Origin: Abditibacteriaceae bacterium | GTDB taxonomy: Bacteria; Armatimonadota; Abditibacteriia; Abditibacteriales; Abditibacteriaceae | Direction of reading: 5' to 3' | Assembly: GCA_031372065.1 (NCBI GenBank) | Contig: JANMKN010000321.1 | Span: 1-15,947 of the forward strand | Length of the DNA: 15,947 nt | In this document: piece by piece, positions 74 through 15,946 of the stretch | How positions within the stretch are numbered: position 1 is the stretch's first letter | Layout: every line of letters starts with the position of its first letter | The notes under the pieces: generated by a model | Seen by the model: the letters and a program-made list of their open reading frames with translations, nothing else | The model's database searches: none | What the model was told of the DNA's origin: nothing | Position numbers and translations under genes: made by a program

Positions 74-628
74 ATGCTTCGCTGGCTGGAAAATTACTTC
101 GCACGTCGTGCCACAATTCGTCAACTCGGCGAATATATCGCGCCGGAAATGCGCGACAAAATTTTGTCGGGCGATTACGAAATTCCTCAACCACAACCAC
201 GCGAAATTGAGTTTGTTCTCATCTTAATCACGCCAAACACAAAGGATGCCAACGCAGAAAACTGCTCAATAGTGATTTCGCAGGCAAAACAAAGCGGCTA
301 TATAATTGAGGCTTTCGCAGGCACACTTTACTACTTAATTGGCGGGCTTTTTACCCGTGAAAATTTCATTCCGGCCTCCGAAGTGGCTGAAAAACTTCAG
401 CAGCAGCTAAAAGAAAAAGCTCGTTCGATTTACGGCACCGACACCGCTTTTGTCGGTTCGATTGGAAGTCTTGACTTCCAAAGTTACACCGCCTTATTAG
501 CCGACTTCCCGGCCCTACTCACACGCCTGTGCAATATGCCCGCAGGTCATTATGAAGAATTTAAAAGCGAAAATCCGATGCTGCACCAAAGGCAGAACGA
601 CTCCGATTCTGGTATCGTAGACGATTAA
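74..628 (+). CDS. Hypothetical protein, degenerate class III adenylate/guanylate cyclase-like domain
   Basis: 184-aa ORF. IRQLGEYIAPEMRDKIL, REIEFVLILI, GYIIEAFAGTLYYLIGG and AFVGSIGSLDFQSYTALLADFPALLTRL are colinear with the class III cyclase consensus (FGRYVSPEV..., VTVLFSDI, GTIDKFIGDAVMAxFG, VVGNIGSxxRxDYTVIGDxVNLASRL), but the catalytic residues are substituted. Confidence 0.65.
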   Translation: MLRWLENYFARRATIRQLGEYIAPEMRDKILSGDYEIPQPQPREIEFVLILITPNTKDANAENCSIVISQAKQSGYIIEAFAGTLYYLIGGLFTRENFIPASEVAEKLQQQLKEKARSIYGTDTAFVGSIGSLDFQSYTALLADFPALLTRLCNMPAGHYEEFKSENPMLHQRQNDSDSGIVDD

Positions 629-7569: not shown

Positions 7570-8609
7570 GGAGTGCTTGCCTCAATCATGGTCGGCACGG
7601 GGGGCGCTTGCAACGCATTAGCGCGCCCTGTCAGCCAACTGCCCGATTCTTCGACACGTTTTCCTGCGCGGCGGCGATAAATAACGCCCGCGCAATGCCC
7701 GCCATCAAGCAAAACCGCGTTTTCGATGCGGCGCGGCAATTCTGCGGCGTCGCAGGGCCGCTCGGTGATAGGCAACTTTGCAAATTCTTTTCGCAAAGCG
7801 GGCAATAACGTGCCCTCGCCAACATAATTCTTGCCTTCGTAGCGTCCGAATAAATTGCGCACTTCTTCCAAACTGCGCGGGTTATGTTGCACCAGAAAAA
7901 ACAAATGTTTGCCATCGGCGCTCCAGCCCAACGCCGCATGACGAAAATAAGGCCCAAAACTGCGCGATAGTCCCGGCCATTGGCCTGGCGGCTCGACATG
8001 AAGCTGCTTTTTCTTATCGCGCCACACTTGCGCTGCGCCGCCATCAATCAAGCAAAGCAGCGCGCTTAAACCAAACGAATTTTGCTTTTGAAAATCCGGC
8101 GCGGGCGCGAAATTCCAGCGGCGATGCGGCGCCGTCAATTCCAAATCAAAAAGAGGGGTCTGACCGGGGCGTAATTGCCAACCAATTGTCCAACGCCGCA
8201 GCGGTTGCACTCCCGCGCCGGGCGTAACGCCATGTTGCCACGCGTTTCCAGTTGCCACGTCGCCAATCAGCGGGCCAACGCTGTCACGGCGCGTCACATA
8301 ATAACCGCCGTTGATGATAGCTGTTTCGCGCGCAGTCGAAAGGCGCGCTTGCGTGGAGATGGCTTTGGCTTGTGGAGAATATAAAACGCGCGGTTGCGCT
8401 AAAGGCGTGTAAATCCACACCGCATACCAATCGCGGCGATAGAGAACATTCGGGCGTGAGGCCGAGCTAAACGACAACATGGCGCGCTTGACATTGTGCG
8501 CTGCTGGCTCGCTGCGTTGCGCCGGCAACTGGCGCTTTTCGATGTTGCGGCATCCGGCTATACCACTTGAAGCGACAGCGAGGCACAGCCAAACGCGCCA
8601 CGATTTCAT
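7566..8609 (-). CDS. Lipoprotein, phosphodiester glycosidase (NAGPA/DUF2233)-like
   Basis: Lipobox IAGC at residue 20. AIINGGYY, RHAALGWSADGKHLFFLV and NAVLLDGGHC correspond to the family motifs INGGFF, PRTAIG..DGxLLLV and AxNLDGGGS. ATGA overlaps at both ends. Confidence 0.7.
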   Translation of the reverse strand: MKSWRVWLCLAVASSGIAGCRNIEKRQLPAQRSEPAAHNVKRAMLSFSSASRPNVLYRRDWYAVWIYTPLAQPRVLYSPQAKAISTQARLSTARETAIINGGYYVTRRDSVGPLIGDVATGNAWQHGVTPGAGVQPLRRWTIGWQLRPGQTPLFDLELTAPHRRWNFAPAPDFQKQNSFGLSALLCLIDGGAAQVWRDKKKQLHVEPPGQWPGLSRSFGPYFRHAALGWSADGKHLFFLVQHNPRSLEEVRNLFGRYEGKNYVGEGTLLPALRKEFAKLPITERPCDAAELPRRIENAVLLDGGHCAGVIYRRRAGKRVEESGSWLTGRANALQAPPVPTMIEASTP

Positions 8610-10078
8610 GCTTTCGTTTCGCTGCCATTCGATGATGGCGCGGCATTGTTATCCAGCAAATTCGCTTTGCCGATGAGTTGCGCGGCTAAAACAGTTTGGA
8701 TGACGCTGGCGATGTTATTAGTGGTCGCATCGGCGGCGCCGCCGTTTTCGTTGCCGGAAATCGTCACCATTTTGGCCTGCGCCAAAGCTGCTGCGATTTG
8801 CGGCGCGATTTGTGGCACCATTTCGATTTGGCGATAGCGCAAATAGGCTTCGCCGCCCGCAATGATGGCTTGATTGATTTTTTCGATGCTTTGCGCGTTG
8901 GCTTCGGCCACGACCAAAATGCGATGCGCTTCGGCATCGGCGCGGGCTAAGGCTTCGATTTTTACGCGCTGTGCATCGGCGTTGGCTTGGGCAATTTGTG
9001 TAGCGTCAAGTTCGGCTTCGCGTTGCAGCCCCAAGGCTTGTTGGCGCTTGGCGTCGGCTTCGGCTACGAGTGCCGCGTTTAAGGCGCGCGTTTGATCTAA
9101 TTCGCGATTGCGGTCTGAAATAATGCGGTCTGCTTCGATTTGCGCTTCTTTGGCGCGCCGCGTTTGCTGCGAGGCCACAATGTCGGCGCCCGCTGCGGCT
9201 TCGGCGACGGCTTCGCGGCGCTTGGTTTCGGCAATTTCGAGCGATTGCTGCTTTTTTACTTCGGCTTCGGCAATCAGGCCCGCGTTGGCGGCGCGGGTTT
9301 GTTCGAGTTCGCGGCTGGCATCCGAAATTTTGCGCTCCGCTTCGAGTTGCGCTTCTTTGGCGCGCCGTGTTTGTTGCGCGGCCACGATGTCGGCGTTGGC
9401 TTGCGCTTCGGCTGCCGACATTCGGCGGCGCGCTTCGGCGACTTCCGATTGCACAACTTTGATGTTCAGCGAATTGAAAATCAAACCGAGATCGGTCAAC
9501 TCGCGCGAACACGCTTTGCGAATGATAATCGCCAACGGGTCGTCGTCGTCTTCCATACCCGAAACGGCTTGTGTATCAATGCCTTCGTGCGTAATCGCCA
9601 CTTTGGGCGCGGTGCGCGCGGAAAATAATTGGTCATGCGTCAGCAAGTTGATGGCGCGGCGACCCGACGAACTGAGCAAATCGATGAGAATGTTGAGTTG
9701 CTCTTCTCGCGGCTTGGAAAAGAAGCGGTTGGCGGCGGTTTTGATGAGTTGATCGGTATCGCCCACCGACACAATCGCGCTGGCTAAAACACGCACTTTG
9801 ATGGGCGAAGGCGTGCCATTGGCGTCCACATCGGCGGTTTGGTCGGTGATGTCGAGGTCAACATTAATCGCCTTGCTGGAAAGCGTGGTGCCGGTTGTGA
9901 AAACCGGAATTTCCAGCGATTTGCCCGGCCCGCGATAAATGACGGTGGCACCGTGCATTTTCGACACCATGCGAATGGTTCCCGCTTCCACATTGCGCAA
10001 AAACGACGACACCGTGATCGGTATCAAAATCAGCACCAAGAAAATGGCGCCAAACACCACATAAACTAAATTGTCCAT
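8606..10078 (-). CDS. Flotillin-like SPFH (band 7) domain protein
   Basis: N-terminal TM, SPFH domain ending ELTDLGLIFNSLNIK, a long Ala/Glu/Arg-rich coiled coil (AEAQANA, ARADAEA), and flotillin-type C-terminus IEMVPQIAPQIAAALAQAKMVTI. Lies downstream of an NfeD-like gene. Confidence 0.88.
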   Translation of the reverse strand: MDNLVYVVFGAIFLVLILIPITVSSFLRNVEAGTIRMVSKMHGATVIYRGPGKSLEIPVFTTGTTLSSKAINVDLDITDQTADVDANGTPSPIKVRVLASAIVSVGDTDQLIKTAANRFFSKPREEQLNILIDLLSSSGRRAINLLTHDQLFSARTAPKVAITHEGIDTQAVSGMEDDDDPLAIIIRKACSRELTDLGLIFNSLNIKVVQSEVAEARRRMSAAEAQANADIVAAQQTRRAKEAQLEAERKISDASRELEQTRAANAGLIAEAEVKKQQSLEIAETKRREAVAEAAAGADIVASQQTRRAKEAQIEADRIISDRNRELDQTRALNAALVAEADAKRQQALGLQREAELDATQIAQANADAQRVKIEALARADAEAHRILVVAEANAQSIEKINQAIIAGGEAYLRYRQIEMVPQIAPQIAAALAQAKMVTISGNENGGAADATTNNIASVIQTVLAAQLIGKANLLDNNAAPSSNGSETKA

Positions 10079-10112
10079 AATAAAATCTCTTTTCTCCCCC
10101 GTGAAAACTCCG

Positions 10113-10850
10113 TTACAACTGTCTCAACGGCGACACGGTGCAGCTTTGTCGCTGCGCATCTACGGCTTCGACCAACAAAATATCGCCCGCGCGCACGCGA
10201 ATGCCTTCGGCTCGTTCGCGCGCGCTGAGGCGACCTAATAATTGAATGGTTTGTCCATCGAGATTGATGGCAATCAGGCCGCAGCCTGTAGAATCGAAAT
10301 TGGTGACGGCGCGCGCTTCTTCGGCGACGGCACTTTCGAGCGTGTGGCCTTCACCGGCAAAGCGAAACCAAAAATTCCACAGCGGGCCAAAGAGAAATTT
10401 TTCAAAGCAAATTCCGCCCACTACAGCCAACAAAGCGCGCCAAGGTTCGGCGTGCAGAAAACTTTTGACCAAAATGCCCGTGGCGCCGAAACCAAGCAAT
10501 ACGCTAAACCACAAGCGTGGCGACAGCAACATCATAAAAATATTGGAGAGGTTTACGCGAATGCTGTGGCCGTGTTGCGCGTGCTGATGGCCGCCCTGAT
10601 GATGGGCACCGTGTTGCGCGCCGTGATGTGGCGCTGCCGTGTGGTGACTTTGAACCGCGTGAGAATCGCTGTGCGCGTGCCCGCTATGCGATCCGCCATG
10701 TCCACTTTCGCCATGCGCATGACCGCCGTGCGAACCACCATGACCATGCGAACCGCCGTGCGCGTGGCCGATTTGACCGAGAAAACTCAGCGCGGCCATG
10801 CTCACCATGCCGGTGAAACCTAAATACAGGCTAAACCTGTAAGCGTCCAT
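10113..10850 (-). CDS. NfeD-like (YuaF/NfeD2-type) flotillin partner with a His-rich loop
   Basis: TM, His/Gly-rich tract, two TMs (LLSPRLWFSVLLGFGATGIL), then OB-fold-like C-terminus (GCGLIAINLDGQTIQLLG..IRVRAGDILLVEAVD..CTV). Start set at ATG 10850 (MDAYRF) rather than 10955. Confidence 0.85.
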   Translation of the reverse strand: MDAYRFSLYLGFTGMVSMAALSFLGQIGHAHGGSHGHGGSHGGHAHGESGHGGSHSGHAHSDSHAVQSHHTAAPHHGAQHGAHHQGGHQHAQHGHSIRVNLSNIFMMLLSPRLWFSVLLGFGATGILVKSFLHAEPWRALLAVVGGICFEKFLFGPLWNFWFRFAGEGHTLESAVAEEARAVTNFDSTGCGLIAINLDGQTIQLLGRLSARERAEGIRVRAGDILLVEAVDAQRQSCTVSPLRQL

Positions 10851-10887
10851 GATATTGTTATGCCTAAATTCCGTATGTTCATCACGC

Positions 10888-10915
10888 ATTATATAGCAAC
10901 CACGCGGCAATACAA
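10888..10915 (-). promoter_or_regulatory. Putative sigma70-type promoter for the nfeD-flotillin operon
   Basis: Minus strand reads TTGTAT-N16-TATAAT. The perfect -10 box is about 37 nt upstream of ATG 10850. Confidence 0.45.
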
Positions 10916-10948
10916 GGGAAAACGAATACAGATTCGGCAAAATCGGGG

Positions 10949-10978
10949 TTGTCACCGAGCAACGAATCGGGCTAAATT
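10949..10978 (+). promoter_or_regulatory. Putative sigma70-type promoter for the isomerase gene
   Basis: TTGTCA-N18-TAAATT, about 30 nt upstream of ATG 11009. Confidence 0.3.
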
Positions 10979-11878: not shown

Positions 11879-13063
11879 TCACATATCCACGCCCATAAAT
11901 TTGCCCACCGTGTCGTAGACACTGTTGTAATAAGCGGTCATGCCCATTCCGACAATAATAAGCGTGGCAATGGCGGCGATGGCGAGGCCAATTAAGCCCA
12001 CTGTCTTAGGCACCGTGGTCATGCGCTGGCGCAAATCGGACTCGTAATACTGCGCGGCTTGTCCCAGCATAGCGGGTTCGCTGCCAGTGGCTTCGCCGGT
12101 TTTAATGAGGCTGAGTGTCACTTCCGAAAACACGCCGGATTGTTTAAGCGCGGTGCCCAGCGGCACATTTTGGTCGCGCGCCAAACGTGCGGCGCGGGCA
12201 AATTTTTCATCAAGAACCGCGTTGTTTGCCATGCCCGCACAGTTTTCCAAAGCGGCAGGCGGTGCAATTCCGGCCTTTGTCAGCCAACCGAGCGCGGTTA
12301 GATAACGAAAAACCGCCAAGTCGCGCCACAGCGGGCCAGTCAGCGGAATATATGCGGCGATTTGGTCGCGCATCTTGCGCGCGGCGGAATTGGTATCCAT
12401 CCATTTGCGCAAAACAAAATACAACGCGATCAAAATTGCCGTCATAATCAGGCGCGGAATGAGATCATGAACATAGCCGGATAATCCGGCGCGCAGGGCT
12501 AACTTTTGCTGCTCCAACTGGCCCATGCCCTGCCCTTGCTTGTCTATCGCTTCGACGGCGTGCGTAAAAATTTTGTAACTGCCCGGCACCAAAATCAGCA
12601 GCGGCAAAACCACAAATTTATTGAGAAACGTCGCCGTAAACAGACTGCGCCGCAAGGCGACTTCATCTTCCAAATCGCGTGCGATACGCTCGAAGGCCGC
12701 TTCCAATTCGCCGCCGGTTTCGCCCGCCAAAACCAGCGCCGCTTCGCCGCGCGAAAAGATTTGAGGCCGCGTTTTCATCCAGGCCGCGAAACTGCCGCCG
12801 CGTTCAACGCAAATTTGCGCTTTGCGCGACGCTTCTTTCAAATCGTCACGGCTTGTCACGCCTTGCATATGATGCAGCGTGGCACCGAGCGTCATGCCGC
12901 CTTTGATGCAAGTCGCCATTTGCCGCCAAAAAACCATACGCGCTTTTAGCGGCACCGTTACCGGCGGCGCCGCGCTAATAATCGCCGCCTGCGGTTTTGG
13001 GGACGGCGAGGATGCCACACTTTGTTGCGGAACTTCATTGGAATGTTGAGGCGAACTTTGCAT
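11879..13063 (-). CDS. Type II secretion system F / type IV pilus PilC family inner-membrane platform protein
   Basis: Two T2SSF repeats: FWRQMATCIKGGMTL..AGETGGELEAAFERIA and LGWLTKAGIAPPAAL..TGEATGSEPAMLGQAAQYYE, each followed by TM segments. Confidence 0.92.
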   Translation of the reverse strand: MQSSPQHSNEVPQQSVASSPSPKPQAAIISAAPPVTVPLKARMVFWRQMATCIKGGMTLGATLHHMQGVTSRDDLKEASRKAQICVERGGSFAAWMKTRPQIFSRGEAALVLAGETGGELEAAFERIARDLEDEVALRRSLFTATFLNKFVVLPLLILVPGSYKIFTHAVEAIDKQGQGMGQLEQQKLALRAGLSGYVHDLIPRLIMTAILIALYFVLRKWMDTNSAARKMRDQIAAYIPLTGPLWRDLAVFRYLTALGWLTKAGIAPPAALENCAGMANNAVLDEKFARAARLARDQNVPLGTALKQSGVFSEVTLSLIKTGEATGSEPAMLGQAAQYYESDLRQRMTTVPKTVGLIGLAIAAIATLIIVGMGMTAYYNSVYDTVGKFMGVDM

Positions 13064-13235: not shown

Positions 13236-14588
13236 TCATATTTCCTGCTTCCACTTAGTGCCCTCCGGCCCGTCTTCCAAGATGATGCCGATGGTCTTTA
13301 ATTCGTTGCGGATTTGGTCGCCAGTTGCAAAATCGCGGCGTTCGCGGGCATCGTGGCGCACTTGAATCAGCAATTCCATCAAGCGTGGCGTGAAGCTGTC
13401 ACCAACTGGCGCGGTTTTTAGATCGAAGCCGAGCATTTCTAAAGCGCGCCGCGCGCTTACGGCTAAAGTCGCATCGCCGCTGCGATTAAATTCGCTGACG
13501 GCATCGAAAACGGCGGCTAAAGCAATCGGCGTATTAAGATTGTCCAGCAAGGCTTCGGCGAAACGCTGCTGGAAAGCGAGGGCAGTATCGCTGTCGCTAT
13601 CGCGTTCGGGCACTTCAGCTAAAGCGTTGGTCAGGCGCGCCCAACTGGTTTTCGATTGTTGCAGTTTTTCTTCGGAATAATCAAGCGGCGATTGCGGATG
13701 CGTCATCAAAAACAAGAGGCGCCACACTTGCGGCGAGGCTTTGGCAAAGCCTTCTTGCAGCGTGATGAAATTGCCGAGCGACTTGCTCATTTTCACGCCA
13801 TTCACGCGCAATTCGCCGCAGTGCCACCACGTTTTGGCGAAGCAGCGGCCATCGAGATAACTTTCGCTTTGCGCCACTTCGTTTTCATGATGTGGAAACG
13901 CCAGTTCGCGCGCGCCGCCGTGAATATCGAAGCCTGCGCCGAGTCAATCGAGCGCCATCGCCGAGCATTCGATATGCCAGCCGGGACGCCCATCGCCCCA
14001 CGGCGAGCGCCACGCCGGTTCGCCCGCTTTGGCGCCTTTCCACAAGGCGAAATCAAGCGGGTCATCTTTTAAATCGCCGGGCGCAATGCGCGCGCCCGAC
14101 TGCAAATCTTCGACTTTCTGGCCGCTGAGTTTGCCGTAATCGTCGTCTTGTGAAACATCGAAATACACATCGCCGCTTTTGGCATAAGCGAAGCCTTTTT
14201 GGATCAGCACTTCGATCATTTCAACGATGTTTTCGATGTTCTGCGTGACGCGCGGATAATGATGCGCTCGCAAGCAGCCCAGCGTGTCCAATTCCTGCGC
14301 GCCTTCCTCGGCAAAGCGCGAGGCCAGTTCGAGCGGGTCAACACCCAGTTCCCCGGCGCGCTTGATGATTTTGTCGTCCACGTCCGTGACGTTTTGCACA
14401 TGAACGACTTCCAAGCCGCGCCATTCCAGAAAACGGCGCAAAACATCGTAAGTCAGAAAGGCGCGCGCATGGCCGATGTGCAGCGCATCGTAAGGCGTGA
14501 CGCCGCAGACATAGAGCGAAATTTTGCCTTCCTCGCGCGGAATGACTTCGTCTTTTTTACGGCTGAGGGTATTGTAAAGGGAGATCAT
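13236..14588 (-). CDS. cysS: Cysteine--tRNA ligase, 450 codons, interrupted by one in-frame TGA at codon 215 (recoded, pseudogene or sequence error)
   Basis: The ORF-track pieces 13944..14588 and 13236..13877 share a frame. The join reads [44 protein letters not shown], KMSKS, the Zn ligands (CGVT, ECSAM, HHENE) and the C-terminal anticodon-binding domain are all present. Confidence 0.95.
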
Positions 14589-14589
14589 A

Positions 14590-14677
14590 TCAGTAGTCAG
14601 TGGTTAGTGGTCGGTGGTCAGTGGCACAGTTTTGCTTGCTGCTTTTCTGACCACTGCGCACCGCTCACTGCCCACTA
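14590..14677. repeat. Inverted arrays of 7-bp tandem repeats forming a long imperfect hairpin
   Basis: TCAGTAG TCAGTGG TTAGTGG TCGGTGG TCAGTGG (14590-14624) face CTGACCA CTGCGCA CCGCTCA CTGCCCA CTA (14647-14677). They fill the whole gap between the sigma gene and cysS. Confidence 0.85.
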
Positions 14678-15946
14678 TTTCATTTGTTCGCCTAAGTTTT
14701 CAAACAGTTCGTCGGCGTTTTTGCCATCGCGCGGGAACAGGACGAAAGCGCGTTTCAATTGCAGTTCGCGCAATTGCGCAGGGTCTTTGGGATACACATT
14801 TTCAGGGCTACAGATTTCGATCCAGCGTTCGCCGACTTTTATACCTAATGGCCCCGAATGCGGCAGCAGCAAAAACAAATTCAGGCCGGGCATCGTGCCC
14901 GGAGGCGCGACGGCCAATTTATCTACACCGCGACACGAACGGCGCGCTAATTTTTGCACCGCAGTCGCCGCGCGCGAGGCGCCCGCTTCGCCCAAATTGG
15001 CTGTCGCTTCGGCCCAATTGGGAATTTGCAGCCATAAAAGGCCGAATTCGTGGTCGTAGCGCGCCGCTCGCAGCACTTCCTCATCCAAAAGGCCCGCGAA
15101 CTCGACCAAACTCGCAACACGTTTGCGCGAAAGAGCCGGAACCGGCGCAATGTGTTGACCAGCACGACGGCGTTCTTCGGCTGTGTCGCCCGTGGTTTTC
15201 CCTTTTGCCAATTCCACCAAATAAGCCGCGCGCGCGCGTTGCTGTGCCCACGGCGCCGCAACGCCATTGGAGGCCATCGGCGCGACTTCGGAAAGTTCGA
15301 TGATTTCTCGCAGGTTTTCCAGCCCACGCTTCACCAAATACGCCGCGTAGTTGATGGAAATTCCCATCTCACGCGCGATTTCGGTTTTTGTCATCTCGCG
15401 AAAAAAGAACATCGTCACAGCGCGTTTTTCAAGGTCTTTCAACTGCGGCAGCGCGGCATCTAAGATCATTTGATGTTCTACGATTTCTTCGTGAGGTTGC
15501 TCTTCATCGGAAATCTGCTCGCTCCAATCGGAAGCGTCTTCATCCTCGCGCCGCTTGTCTTCGAGCGAATCCACGTTGAGAATCTGCGTGTTTTTCAAAA
15601 CCTCGCGCACACTGTCCGCTTTGATGTCCAATGCTTCAGCGATTTCTTCAGGCGAAGGTGCGCGATCAAATTCAGTTGTCAGTTTTTCCGTAGTGCGCAC
15701 AATACGCTGGCGCAATTCCGAATGCCAGCCCGGTTCGTGAATTAAACGGCCCAAATCGCGCAAATAATGACGAATTTCACCGGAAATCAAATGGCACGCA
15801 TAAGTCGAAAACTTGATGCCCTTATCGGGATCGTAACGATCAACCGCTTTGACAAGACCGATGTAACCTTCCTGCACCAAGTCTTCAAACGGCTCGCCGG
15901 ATGTCTTGAAACCCCGCGCGCAGTATTCGACAAGGGGCGCGTGAAC
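14675..15946 (-). CDS. Sigma-70 family sigma factor (SigB/SigF/SigG/FliA-like) with a C-terminal degenerate GGDEF-like domain; 5' end lies outside the window
   Basis: Frame is open to the edge (VHAPLVEYCARGFKTSGEPFEDLVQEGYIGLVKAVDRYDPDKGIKFSTYA, region 2). Region 3 is RAPSPEEIAEAL and region 4 is LKDLEKRAVTMFFFREMTKTEIAREMGIS. A linker and a ~145-aa GGDEF-like domain follow. Confidence 0.92.
   Translation of the reverse strand, partial: VHAPLVEYCARGFKTSGEPFEDLVQEGYIGLVKAVDRYDPDKGIKFSTYACHLISGEIRHYLRDLGRLIHEPGWHSELRQRIVRTTEKLTTEFDRAPSPEEIAEALDIKADSVREVLKNTQILNVDSLEDKRREDEDASDWSEQISDEEQPHEEIVEHQMILDAALPQLKDLEKRAVTMFFFREMTKTEIAREMGISINYAAYLVKRGLENLREIIELSEVAPMASNGVAAPWAQQRARAAYLVELAKGKTTGDTAEERRRAGQHIAPVPALSRKRVASLVEFAGLLDEEVLRAARYDHEFGLLWLQIPNWAEATANLGEAGASRAATAVQKLARRSCRGVDKLAVAPPGTMPGLNLFLLLPHSGPLGIKVGERWIEICSPENVYPKDPAQLRELQLKRAFVLFPRDGKNADELFENLGEQMK

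Follow-up and report, generated by a model that had tools for sequence, protein, structure and literature searches.

The alternative sigma factor WhiG of Streptomyces and Rubrobacter is controlled by c-di-GMP (cyclic dimeric guanosine monophosphate) in the complex RsiG-(c-di-GMP)2-WhiG, and the accessible text of PMC8325347 proposes type IV pilus genes together with diguanylate cyclase and phosphodiesterase genes as targets of the Rubrobacter protein. The published c-di-GMP control of a sigma factor that we found works via this separate anti-sigma factor, RsiG, which is itself the sensor and bears motifs of the form E(X)3S(X)2R(X)3Q(X)3D. The inhibitory site (I-site) of GGDEF domains binds the same ligand; as set out in the available excerpt of PMC7288161, one domain contributes R359, D362, and R390 to the PleD I-site while its neighbor contributes R313, and two ligand dimers cross-link the domains. 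Regulation within one chain, by a fused C-terminal domain and without an obvious anti-sigma gene, is reported for the extracytoplasmic function (ECF) group ECF41 in the accessible part of PMC3426412, and cyanobacterial SigF, a group 3 sigma factor, is tied to pilin expression, with pilA under its control according to the part of PMC7690835 that was available. Here, we describe a gene in which such known pieces come together in what appears to be an undescribed combination. It occupies the minus strand at 14675..15946 of a 15,947-nucleotide stretch from an Abditibacteriaceae bacterium, called the window below, which is a whole contig (JANMKN010000321.1; G000:C200), and it encodes a SigB/F/G-type sigma factor fused to a GGDEF-fold domain.

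The frame runs from 15946 to the stop codon at 14675-14677 and is open over 423 residues. Its 5' end is cut by the contig edge, about 55–60 residues lie beyond the contig, and full-length close relatives count 478–507 residues (n = 12, 72%–82% identity over the C-terminal part). No contig in the same assembly overlaps the missing 5' end, and two public contigs extend past the contig end at this gene. A separately assembled public contig, which may derive from the source sample, spans 14373-15666 with zero differences, and thus the junction between sigma factor and C-domain is not a mis-join. Sigma-70 regions 2 (residues 2-67, 15746..15943; PF04542, E 2e-18), 3 (residues 77-144, 15515..15718; PF04539, E 2.8e-13), and 4 (residues 160-214, 15305..15469; PF08281/PF04545, E about 1e-8) all score over the Pfam cut-offs, which places the protein in group 3 of the Sigma-70 factors (SigB/F/G-like). 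The best NCBIfam model is SigB/SigF/SigG (TIGR02980; E 6e-51, 173 bits against a cut-off of 234, with the N-terminus of the protein missing), followed by cyanobacterial SigF (PRK07408; 141 bits against 261) and, lower, by FliA/WhiG (TIGR02479; 109 bits against 190). The top Foldseek matches of the whole model include the S. aureus SigB holoenzyme, and only sigma factors are among the matches listed from the 'pdb' search. The ESM Atlas clusters of the fusion carry generic sigma-70 names only, with Armatimonadota as the commonest taxon.

The C-terminal domain has a GGDEF fold (PF00990-type), by structure as well as by homology. Although the last 198 residues of the window protein alone match no Pfam or NCBIfam model, a profile of the family's C-domains (96 sequences) matches 57 PDB sequences, nearly all of which are named as GGDEF proteins or cyclases (PleD, E 9e-25; 6d9m, E 7e-33). 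PF00990 itself is matched by 6 of 19 family members (best 7.7e-16), and a distant member retrieves PDB cyclases by plain sequence search. In the AlphaFold2 model (mean predicted local distance difference test score, pLDDT, 85.8; predicted template modeling score, pTM, 0.51), residues 269-423 (14678..15142) match GGDEF structures with a best Z of 17.9 and a root mean square deviation (rmsd) of 1.9 Å over 144 residues among the first 30 rows of a wide structure search; PleD (1w25) is matched at Z 16.1, with an rmsd of 2.3 Å over 142 residues. An initial annotation, made from the letters of the window, had proposed a GGDEF-like C-terminus that starts at 15120 and had named failure to model as this fold as grounds for giving the idea up. 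The fold is present in the model, although it begins earlier than proposed, near residue 269 (15142). The motifs quoted in support all lie where they were placed: FAGLLDEE at 15100-15077, QIP at 15028-15020, RGVD at 14932-14921, PPGTMPGLN at 14905-14879, FLLLPH at 14875-14858, and LFPRDG at 14740-14723.

Loss of catalysis and retention of the I-site were compared across the family and against control domains. We fetched 100 loci spread over families, 97 of which have the whole C-domain in frame (two others are frameshifted or split and one lies at a contig end), and a 50%-identity library, in which 70 of the best 150 matches have both parts, gave 67 representatives after three short sequences were dropped. 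The 60 control domains (39 intact, 21 degenerate) were gathered with the family's own profile from the window's genome and from 40 fetched regions in the weaker part of 57 matches, a selection that favors look-alikes of the family. The catalytic positions (the first Asp of DID, F-K, N-D, H-G-D, GG(D/E)EF, and the Ser before G400) are invariant or almost so in 17 intact cyclases of the window's own genome and unconserved in the fusion family. A GGDEF-type motif occurs in 0 of 164 family members (97 loci and 67 representatives) and the first Asp in 16 of 164, so this copy is not, as the initial annotation had left open, simply a decayed cyclase fusion among intact homologs. In the window protein, GG(D/E)EF, the metal-binding Asp, and the N/D pair of active diguanylate cyclases are lost: as first read, Q307 stands in the column of the first D of DID, T315/A316 stand in those of N/D, and a PPGTMPGLN loop (14879..14905), separated from D342 by five residues, replaces the GG(D/E)EF signature.

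Conservation lies elsewhere. The mean column identity of the C-domain is only 31% (96 sequences), and just seven columns are at least 90% conserved, namely E290, R293, R339, D342, P362, R374, and P405. Both an alignment of columns with intact cyclases and the spacing of the residues equate R293, R339, D342, and R374 with R313, R359, D362, and R390 of PleD; R293 precedes R339 by 46 residues, as R313 precedes R359, and the R374 column follows the RxxD arginine by 31 residues in the aligned cyclases, as R390 follows R359. In the window, R293, the counterpart of the partner-supplied arginine, lies in the E290-x-x-R293-x-x-R296 helix (15059..15079), the primary I-site motif R339-G-V-D342 at 14921..14932, and R374, the third primary residue, at 14825..14827. 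The window's copy keeps all four residues and thus has the set expected of a degenerate-GGDEF I-site receptor. All four are kept in 91 of the 97 loci and 52 of the 67 representatives, compared with 12 of 39 domains of intact cyclases (for the representatives, this contrast has a Fisher p of 3e-6, the sequences being not fully independent), and 32 of 33 families have at least one member with the complete set. Since so few intact cyclases keep all four, the GGDEF fold does not need them. RxxD alone is kept in 95 of 97 loci and 60 of 67 representatives, so the expectation that it would be conserved among homologs that have lost GGDEF was borne out. In the comparison with PleD, WspR, and PelD-type receptors, the fusion has the same fold, the same four ligand residues, and a predicted cross-linked geometry (PMC7288161, in excerpt), but it differs in lacking an active site, a sensor domain, and a membrane anchor, and in having a sigma factor as its output.

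That geometry comes from a structure prediction for two copies of residues 160-423 with four c-di-GMP, in which the ligand itself is unscored. The predicted homodimer has a score of 0.63, whereas the best of three controls stays at 0.00, with at least 45% of contacts shared between runs and a partner pLDDT of at least 76; among solved homodimers, 20 of 30 reach the mark applied, as does 1 of 23 single chains, counts that hold only roughly for the present case. The best-resolved pairs (339-296, 362-293, 296-340, and 341-293) bring the RxxD loop (339-341) and P362 of one copy to the R293/R296 helix of the other, and the linker (residues 221-268, 15143..15286), with a predicted helix at 232-248, is also part of the predicted interface. 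This predicted pairing resembles the geometry described for inhibited cyclases in the accessible part of PMC7288161. In the model of a pilC-linked relative (L051), a single unbroken helix of 48 residues extends from the recognition helix of region 4 into the GGDEF domain.

A link of the family to pili is found in its gene neighborhoods. In 50 of the 100 loci and in 19 of 33 families, the gene immediately upstream on the same strand is pilC, commonly in the order ATPase-ATPase-pilC-sigma-(pilins) with ATPases of type II/IV, and three further loci have pilC nearby on the opposite strand. Sister sigma factors that lack the fused domain, in Vulcanimicrobiota, Atribacterota, and Melainabacteria, are also found near pilC; such SigF-like genes (L177, L198, L199, L202, L204, L209, L210, and L231-L239) suggest an old pilus-linked sigma lineage. 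The PilB encoded beside the fusion gene matches Pfam MshEN in all three cases tested. We considered these PilBs as c-di-GMP receptors and rejected the idea, as a pattern for the c-di-GMP-binding RLG motif found no match in them. By such a pattern, an RLG-type MshEN motif does stand at the start of another secretion ATPase, the second one, which is encoded downstream of the pilin genes in L072, L073, and L077, unlike in the upstream PilB.

The interval between the fusion gene and the pilin gene contains a candidate promoter: ATCTCAAA, or a matching -10 half, together with TGGAA(T/G)AA, is found in 6 of 8 loci. Across 251 genomes, TCTCAAA-N11-14-TDTGGAAKA has 31 matches, training loci included, compared with 7 for the reversed pattern, and the bipartite motif is present in 26 of 183 genomes with a match to the family and 1 of 68 without, although kin are not independent. 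A looser first pattern gave 7 matches against 0 controls in a set that held the training loci and 3 against 6 controls in another set of five genomes. The genes behind the motif include pilins, fliM, a GGDEF gene, a REC-GGDEF-HD gene, a MerR-type gene, and stand-alone LuxR genes in three families; the gene after the MerR-type one is presumably flgB-like, with no Pfam match. The LuxR genes, which encode helix-turn-helix proteins of approximately 90 residues (L295, L310, L311, L317, and L318), may possibly form a second tier of the regulon. The fusion sigma may be the factor that reads the motif, to judge from the position of the motif, its SigB/F-like -10 element (compared with the available part of PMC2532724), and its absence in tested families with only an rsbVW-linked SigB. 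It is likely that pilus and motility genes make up the regulon in most of the phylum.

We propose the following mechanism. c-di-GMP would bind the I-site residues R293, R339, D342, and R374 of the fused domain, the bound ligand would cross-link two copies of the sigma factor, and the cross-linked sigma factor would be withdrawn from RNA polymerase or promoter DNA, such that its targets are no longer transcribed and, in most of the phylum, pilus and motility genes would be shut down at high c-di-GMP. In the pilC-linked relatives, the change could be relayed along the predicted continuous helix that connects the -35 recognition helix with the GGDEF domain. Binding of c-di-GMP by the fused domain is probable, and if binding occurs, control of sigma activity by the ligand is very likely. 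The inhibitory direction, which is argued from feedback-inhibited cyclases and from RsiG-WhiG, seems the better guess but a less secure one. For the whole chain of binding, cross-linking, and shut-off, we judge the chances to be about even. The idea of a c-di-GMP-gated sigma factor, as first put forward in the initial annotation, is supported by the fold and by RxxD, and further strengthened by two more I-site arginines and the pilus link of the family; the accompanying idea of a built-in anti-sigma module is more tentative, as region 4 is not among the parts named for the predicted interface of the dimer.

Several observations weigh against this proposal. As region 4 is outside the named interface and the domain arrangement is loose in single-chain models (pTM 0.51 for the window protein and 0.56 for a relative), the models contain no contact that would block the sigma factor. 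The linker helix of the window protein is in pieces in the AlphaFold2 model, with low-confidence stretches, and the dimer pass itself may be a memory of solved inhibited cyclases such as PleD. RxxD is frequent in intact cyclases as well (32/39), and other degenerate GGDEF domains retain RxxD in 20 of 21 cases and all four residues in 12 of 21, a difference from the family that is not significant (p 0.09); being common among dead GGDEF domains, the four-residue pattern is a signature of a broad class and no proof of binding. For the promoter, 8 of the 31 motif matches served to build the pattern, approximately a dozen others lie inside open frames or before unrelated genes and look like chance, and the assignment of the motif to the fusion sigma is inferred. 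Within the window's own family, the fusion gene is flanked by an AI-2E transporter gene and cysS, is behind pilC in 0 of 13 loci, and is accompanied by the bipartite motif in 0 of 21 genomes; 4 of 11 loci lack at least one of the four residues. The best matrix match followed up in the window's own genome, a site on C173, was rejected, as the start codon of a histidine kinase gene falls within it and five relatives do not retain its -35 part.

It is also conceivable, although rather unlikely, that c-di-GMP binding, with no inhibitory dimer involved, activates the sigma factor or sends it to a partner, a cell pole, or a protease. PopA, a degenerate-GGDEF receptor of c-di-GMP, exemplifies routing to proteolysis. 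The same conservation of I-site residues would fit, GGDEF and pilin genes as candidate targets are compatible with positive feedback and surface attachment, and the extension of ECF41 factors, described in the accessible part of PMC3426412 as crucial for activity, offers the release of an intramolecular block as a model. However, R293, which in inhibited cyclases is the arginine supplied by the partner, is kept in 94 of 97 loci and used in the predicted dimer, and fliM and pilins as candidate targets fit a shut-down at high c-di-GMP, as proposed for Rubrobacter in the available text of PMC8325347.

Less probable still is a ligand-independent role, in which the GGDEF domain is a dimerization or docking module whose conserved Arg and Asp residues are engaged in salt bridges or in contacts with an acidic partner. 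The frequent retention of all four residues by unrelated degenerate GGDEF domains would suit such a module, as would a dimer score that covers protein contacts only, and the domain stays in place in a second paralog of one family and in several members of the window's family that have lost RxxD or the R293 helix. Contrarily, the polar columns that are conserved, few as they are, fall on the published set of ligand contacts in a domain that otherwise varies widely, and intact cyclases often lack these residues (R293 21/39, R374 25/39). That the switch operates in pilC-linked relatives while the module is drifting towards loss in the window's family is very improbable, for although the pilC link and the motif are gone there, the linker is broken, a five-residue loop insertion is present, some loci are short of a residue, and the C-domain is frameshifted or split in G002 and G006 (possibly by assembly error), 25 of the 26 other genomes in that family do have the C-domain, and the window's copy has all four residues and gave the dimer pass.

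Natural variants of the fused domain and its look-alikes were also recorded. L065, L108, and L116 are second, divergent fusion copies in one family, and L065, which precedes a pilin gene, has H in place of the RxxD arginine. Within the window's family, the E290/R293 helix or RxxD is missing from L037-L040. The C-domain is frameshifted, split, or stopped early in L004/L033 (G002), L018/L127 (G006), and L146, which may reflect real loss or assembly error. Two degenerate GGDEF domains elsewhere in the window's own genome (C210:16467-17864 and C83:285-1442) keep RxxD, and the former keeps all four residues. In one Melainabacteria-type genome (G259; L251, L255-L257, L261, L263, and L266), degenerate GGDEF domains that look alike and bear E(Y/F)xR and RxxD are numerous and may represent a receptor family that has expanded.

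The fusion is widespread in its phylum. A search with the C-domain alone found it in 33 of 61 related genomes, and the full-length family profile matches 183 of 251 Armatimonadota genomes at E 1e-66 or better, nearly always once; these matches are counted by score, and the weakest may be unfused. Named fusion records come from Abditibacteriia, Fimbriimonadia, Chthonomonadia, and other classes. A wider range, as suggested by records titled Actinomycetota or Archangium, was rejected, as these sequences nest inside the Armatimonadota clade. In a quick tree, all fused proteins form one clade (Shimodaira-Hasegawa-like approximate likelihood ratio test, SH-aLRT, 99), the window protein groups with Abditibacteriaceae records, and the clade is closest to sigma factors without the fusion from Vulcanimicrobiota, Atribacterota, and unnamed bacteria. 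A larger group also holds Melainabacteria sigma factors and cyanobacterial SigF, and the rsbVW-linked SigB of the window's own genome falls outside it (support 91), as the only such SigB included and on a long branch. The simplest reading of these sequence relationships would be a single fusion event early in the phylum.

The fusion can be compared with each of the described systems. Like WhiG, it would be an alternative sigma factor under c-di-GMP control with similar suggested targets (PMC8325347, as far as accessible), but sensing would fall to a GGDEF I-site within the sigma chain itself rather than to a separate anti-sigma factor, and it scores best as SigB/F/G rather than as part of WhiG's flagellar clade (173 against 109 bits), outside of which it falls. 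With cyanobacterial SigF it has HYLRD in region 2.4, where the rsbVW-linked SigB has RYFRD; SigF nevertheless has no C-terminal domain, is not its sister in the quick tree, and has a published -10 element (GGGT...; PMC2532724, in part) that differs from the candidate GGAAKA. ECF41 factors lack region 3 and carry an extension that is not a GGDEF fold, whereas the fusion has region 3 and thus is not of ECF architecture; the term 'ggdef' has no occurrence in the accessible text of the ECF classification papers checked. The closest NCBIfam model, although below its cut-off, recalls SigB, which is controlled by partner switching with RsbV and RsbW, but rsbV/rsbW are not a recurring neighbor of the fusion among the 100 loci, a count to which the window's own upstream DNA, being beyond the contig, does not contribute and with which control from a distance would still be compatible. 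The window's own rsbV-rsbW pair lies with another sigma gene in a separate rsbV-rsbW-sigB-like operon (G000:C12:2131-4282), whose sigma factor is 36% identical to the sigma part of the fusion. No description of a sigma factor-GGDEF fusion was found in a full-text literature search that left most subscription papers and all supplements outside, where a table of domain architectures might list it, and the available portion of PMC9239204 does not describe one.

The window's own organism has c-di-GMP machinery, to judge from the 17 intact GGDEF motifs and 5 HD-GYP motifs in its genome. Strong GGDEF matches occur in all five small fusion-bearing genomes tested; as four of five fusion-less genomes have them too, co-occurrence with cyclases was rejected as evidence. 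Only an rsbV/W-linked SigB is present in 3 of these 5 fusion-less genomes. The pilus operon of the organism, pilB-pilT-pilC with prepilin genes, is at G000:C355:3959-19611 and has no sigma gene. The stand-alone pilC-like (T2SSF) gene of the window (11879-13063, minus strand), which the initial annotation had rightly treated as weak evidence for a motility role, is a distant paralog, 24%–28% identical to the operon-type PilC on the other contig, and was rejected as evidence for pili. A matrix scan of the own genome gave 17 matches, compared with 2–8 for five column permutations, and CTCAA-GGAATA shows no spacing enrichment in the own lineage. A site before a gene that we take to be TadG-like was rejected, as it is not clearly kept in five related loci, and neither a fliM nor a flgB-like match was found in the own assembly (94% complete).

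Elsewhere in the window, cysS (13236-14588, minus strand) has an in-frame TGA at 13944-13946, a position occupied by L, I, or T in eight relatives; no other copy was found in the assembly, no listed public contig spans the site, and the TGA is probably an assembly error. A pair of genes at 8606-10955 (minus strand) presumably encodes flotillin-like and His-rich NfeD-like proteins, with no Pfam match over the cut-off. A frame of 184 residues at 74-628 (plus strand) has no Pfam match, bears what we take to be a faint resemblance to a class III cyclase fragment, and is followed by short imperfect repeats at about 625-930.

It is possible to extend the proposal to a phylum-wide one-component switch, in which the cross-linked sigma factor pulls on its -35 helix and, without an anti-sigma factor, acts as master of pilus, flagellar, and c-di-GMP genes; we offer this tentatively, its chances being a little under even. 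If true, no route leading from c-di-GMP to the choice of promoter could be shorter than such a self-sensing sigma factor, and it would show how the feedback site of a cyclase can be reused as a transcription switch. The fusion could also serve as a one-gene c-di-GMP-responsive expression tool. Moreover, it would be the first candidate regulator of motility and attachment, with a candidate promoter, for this poorly studied phylum.

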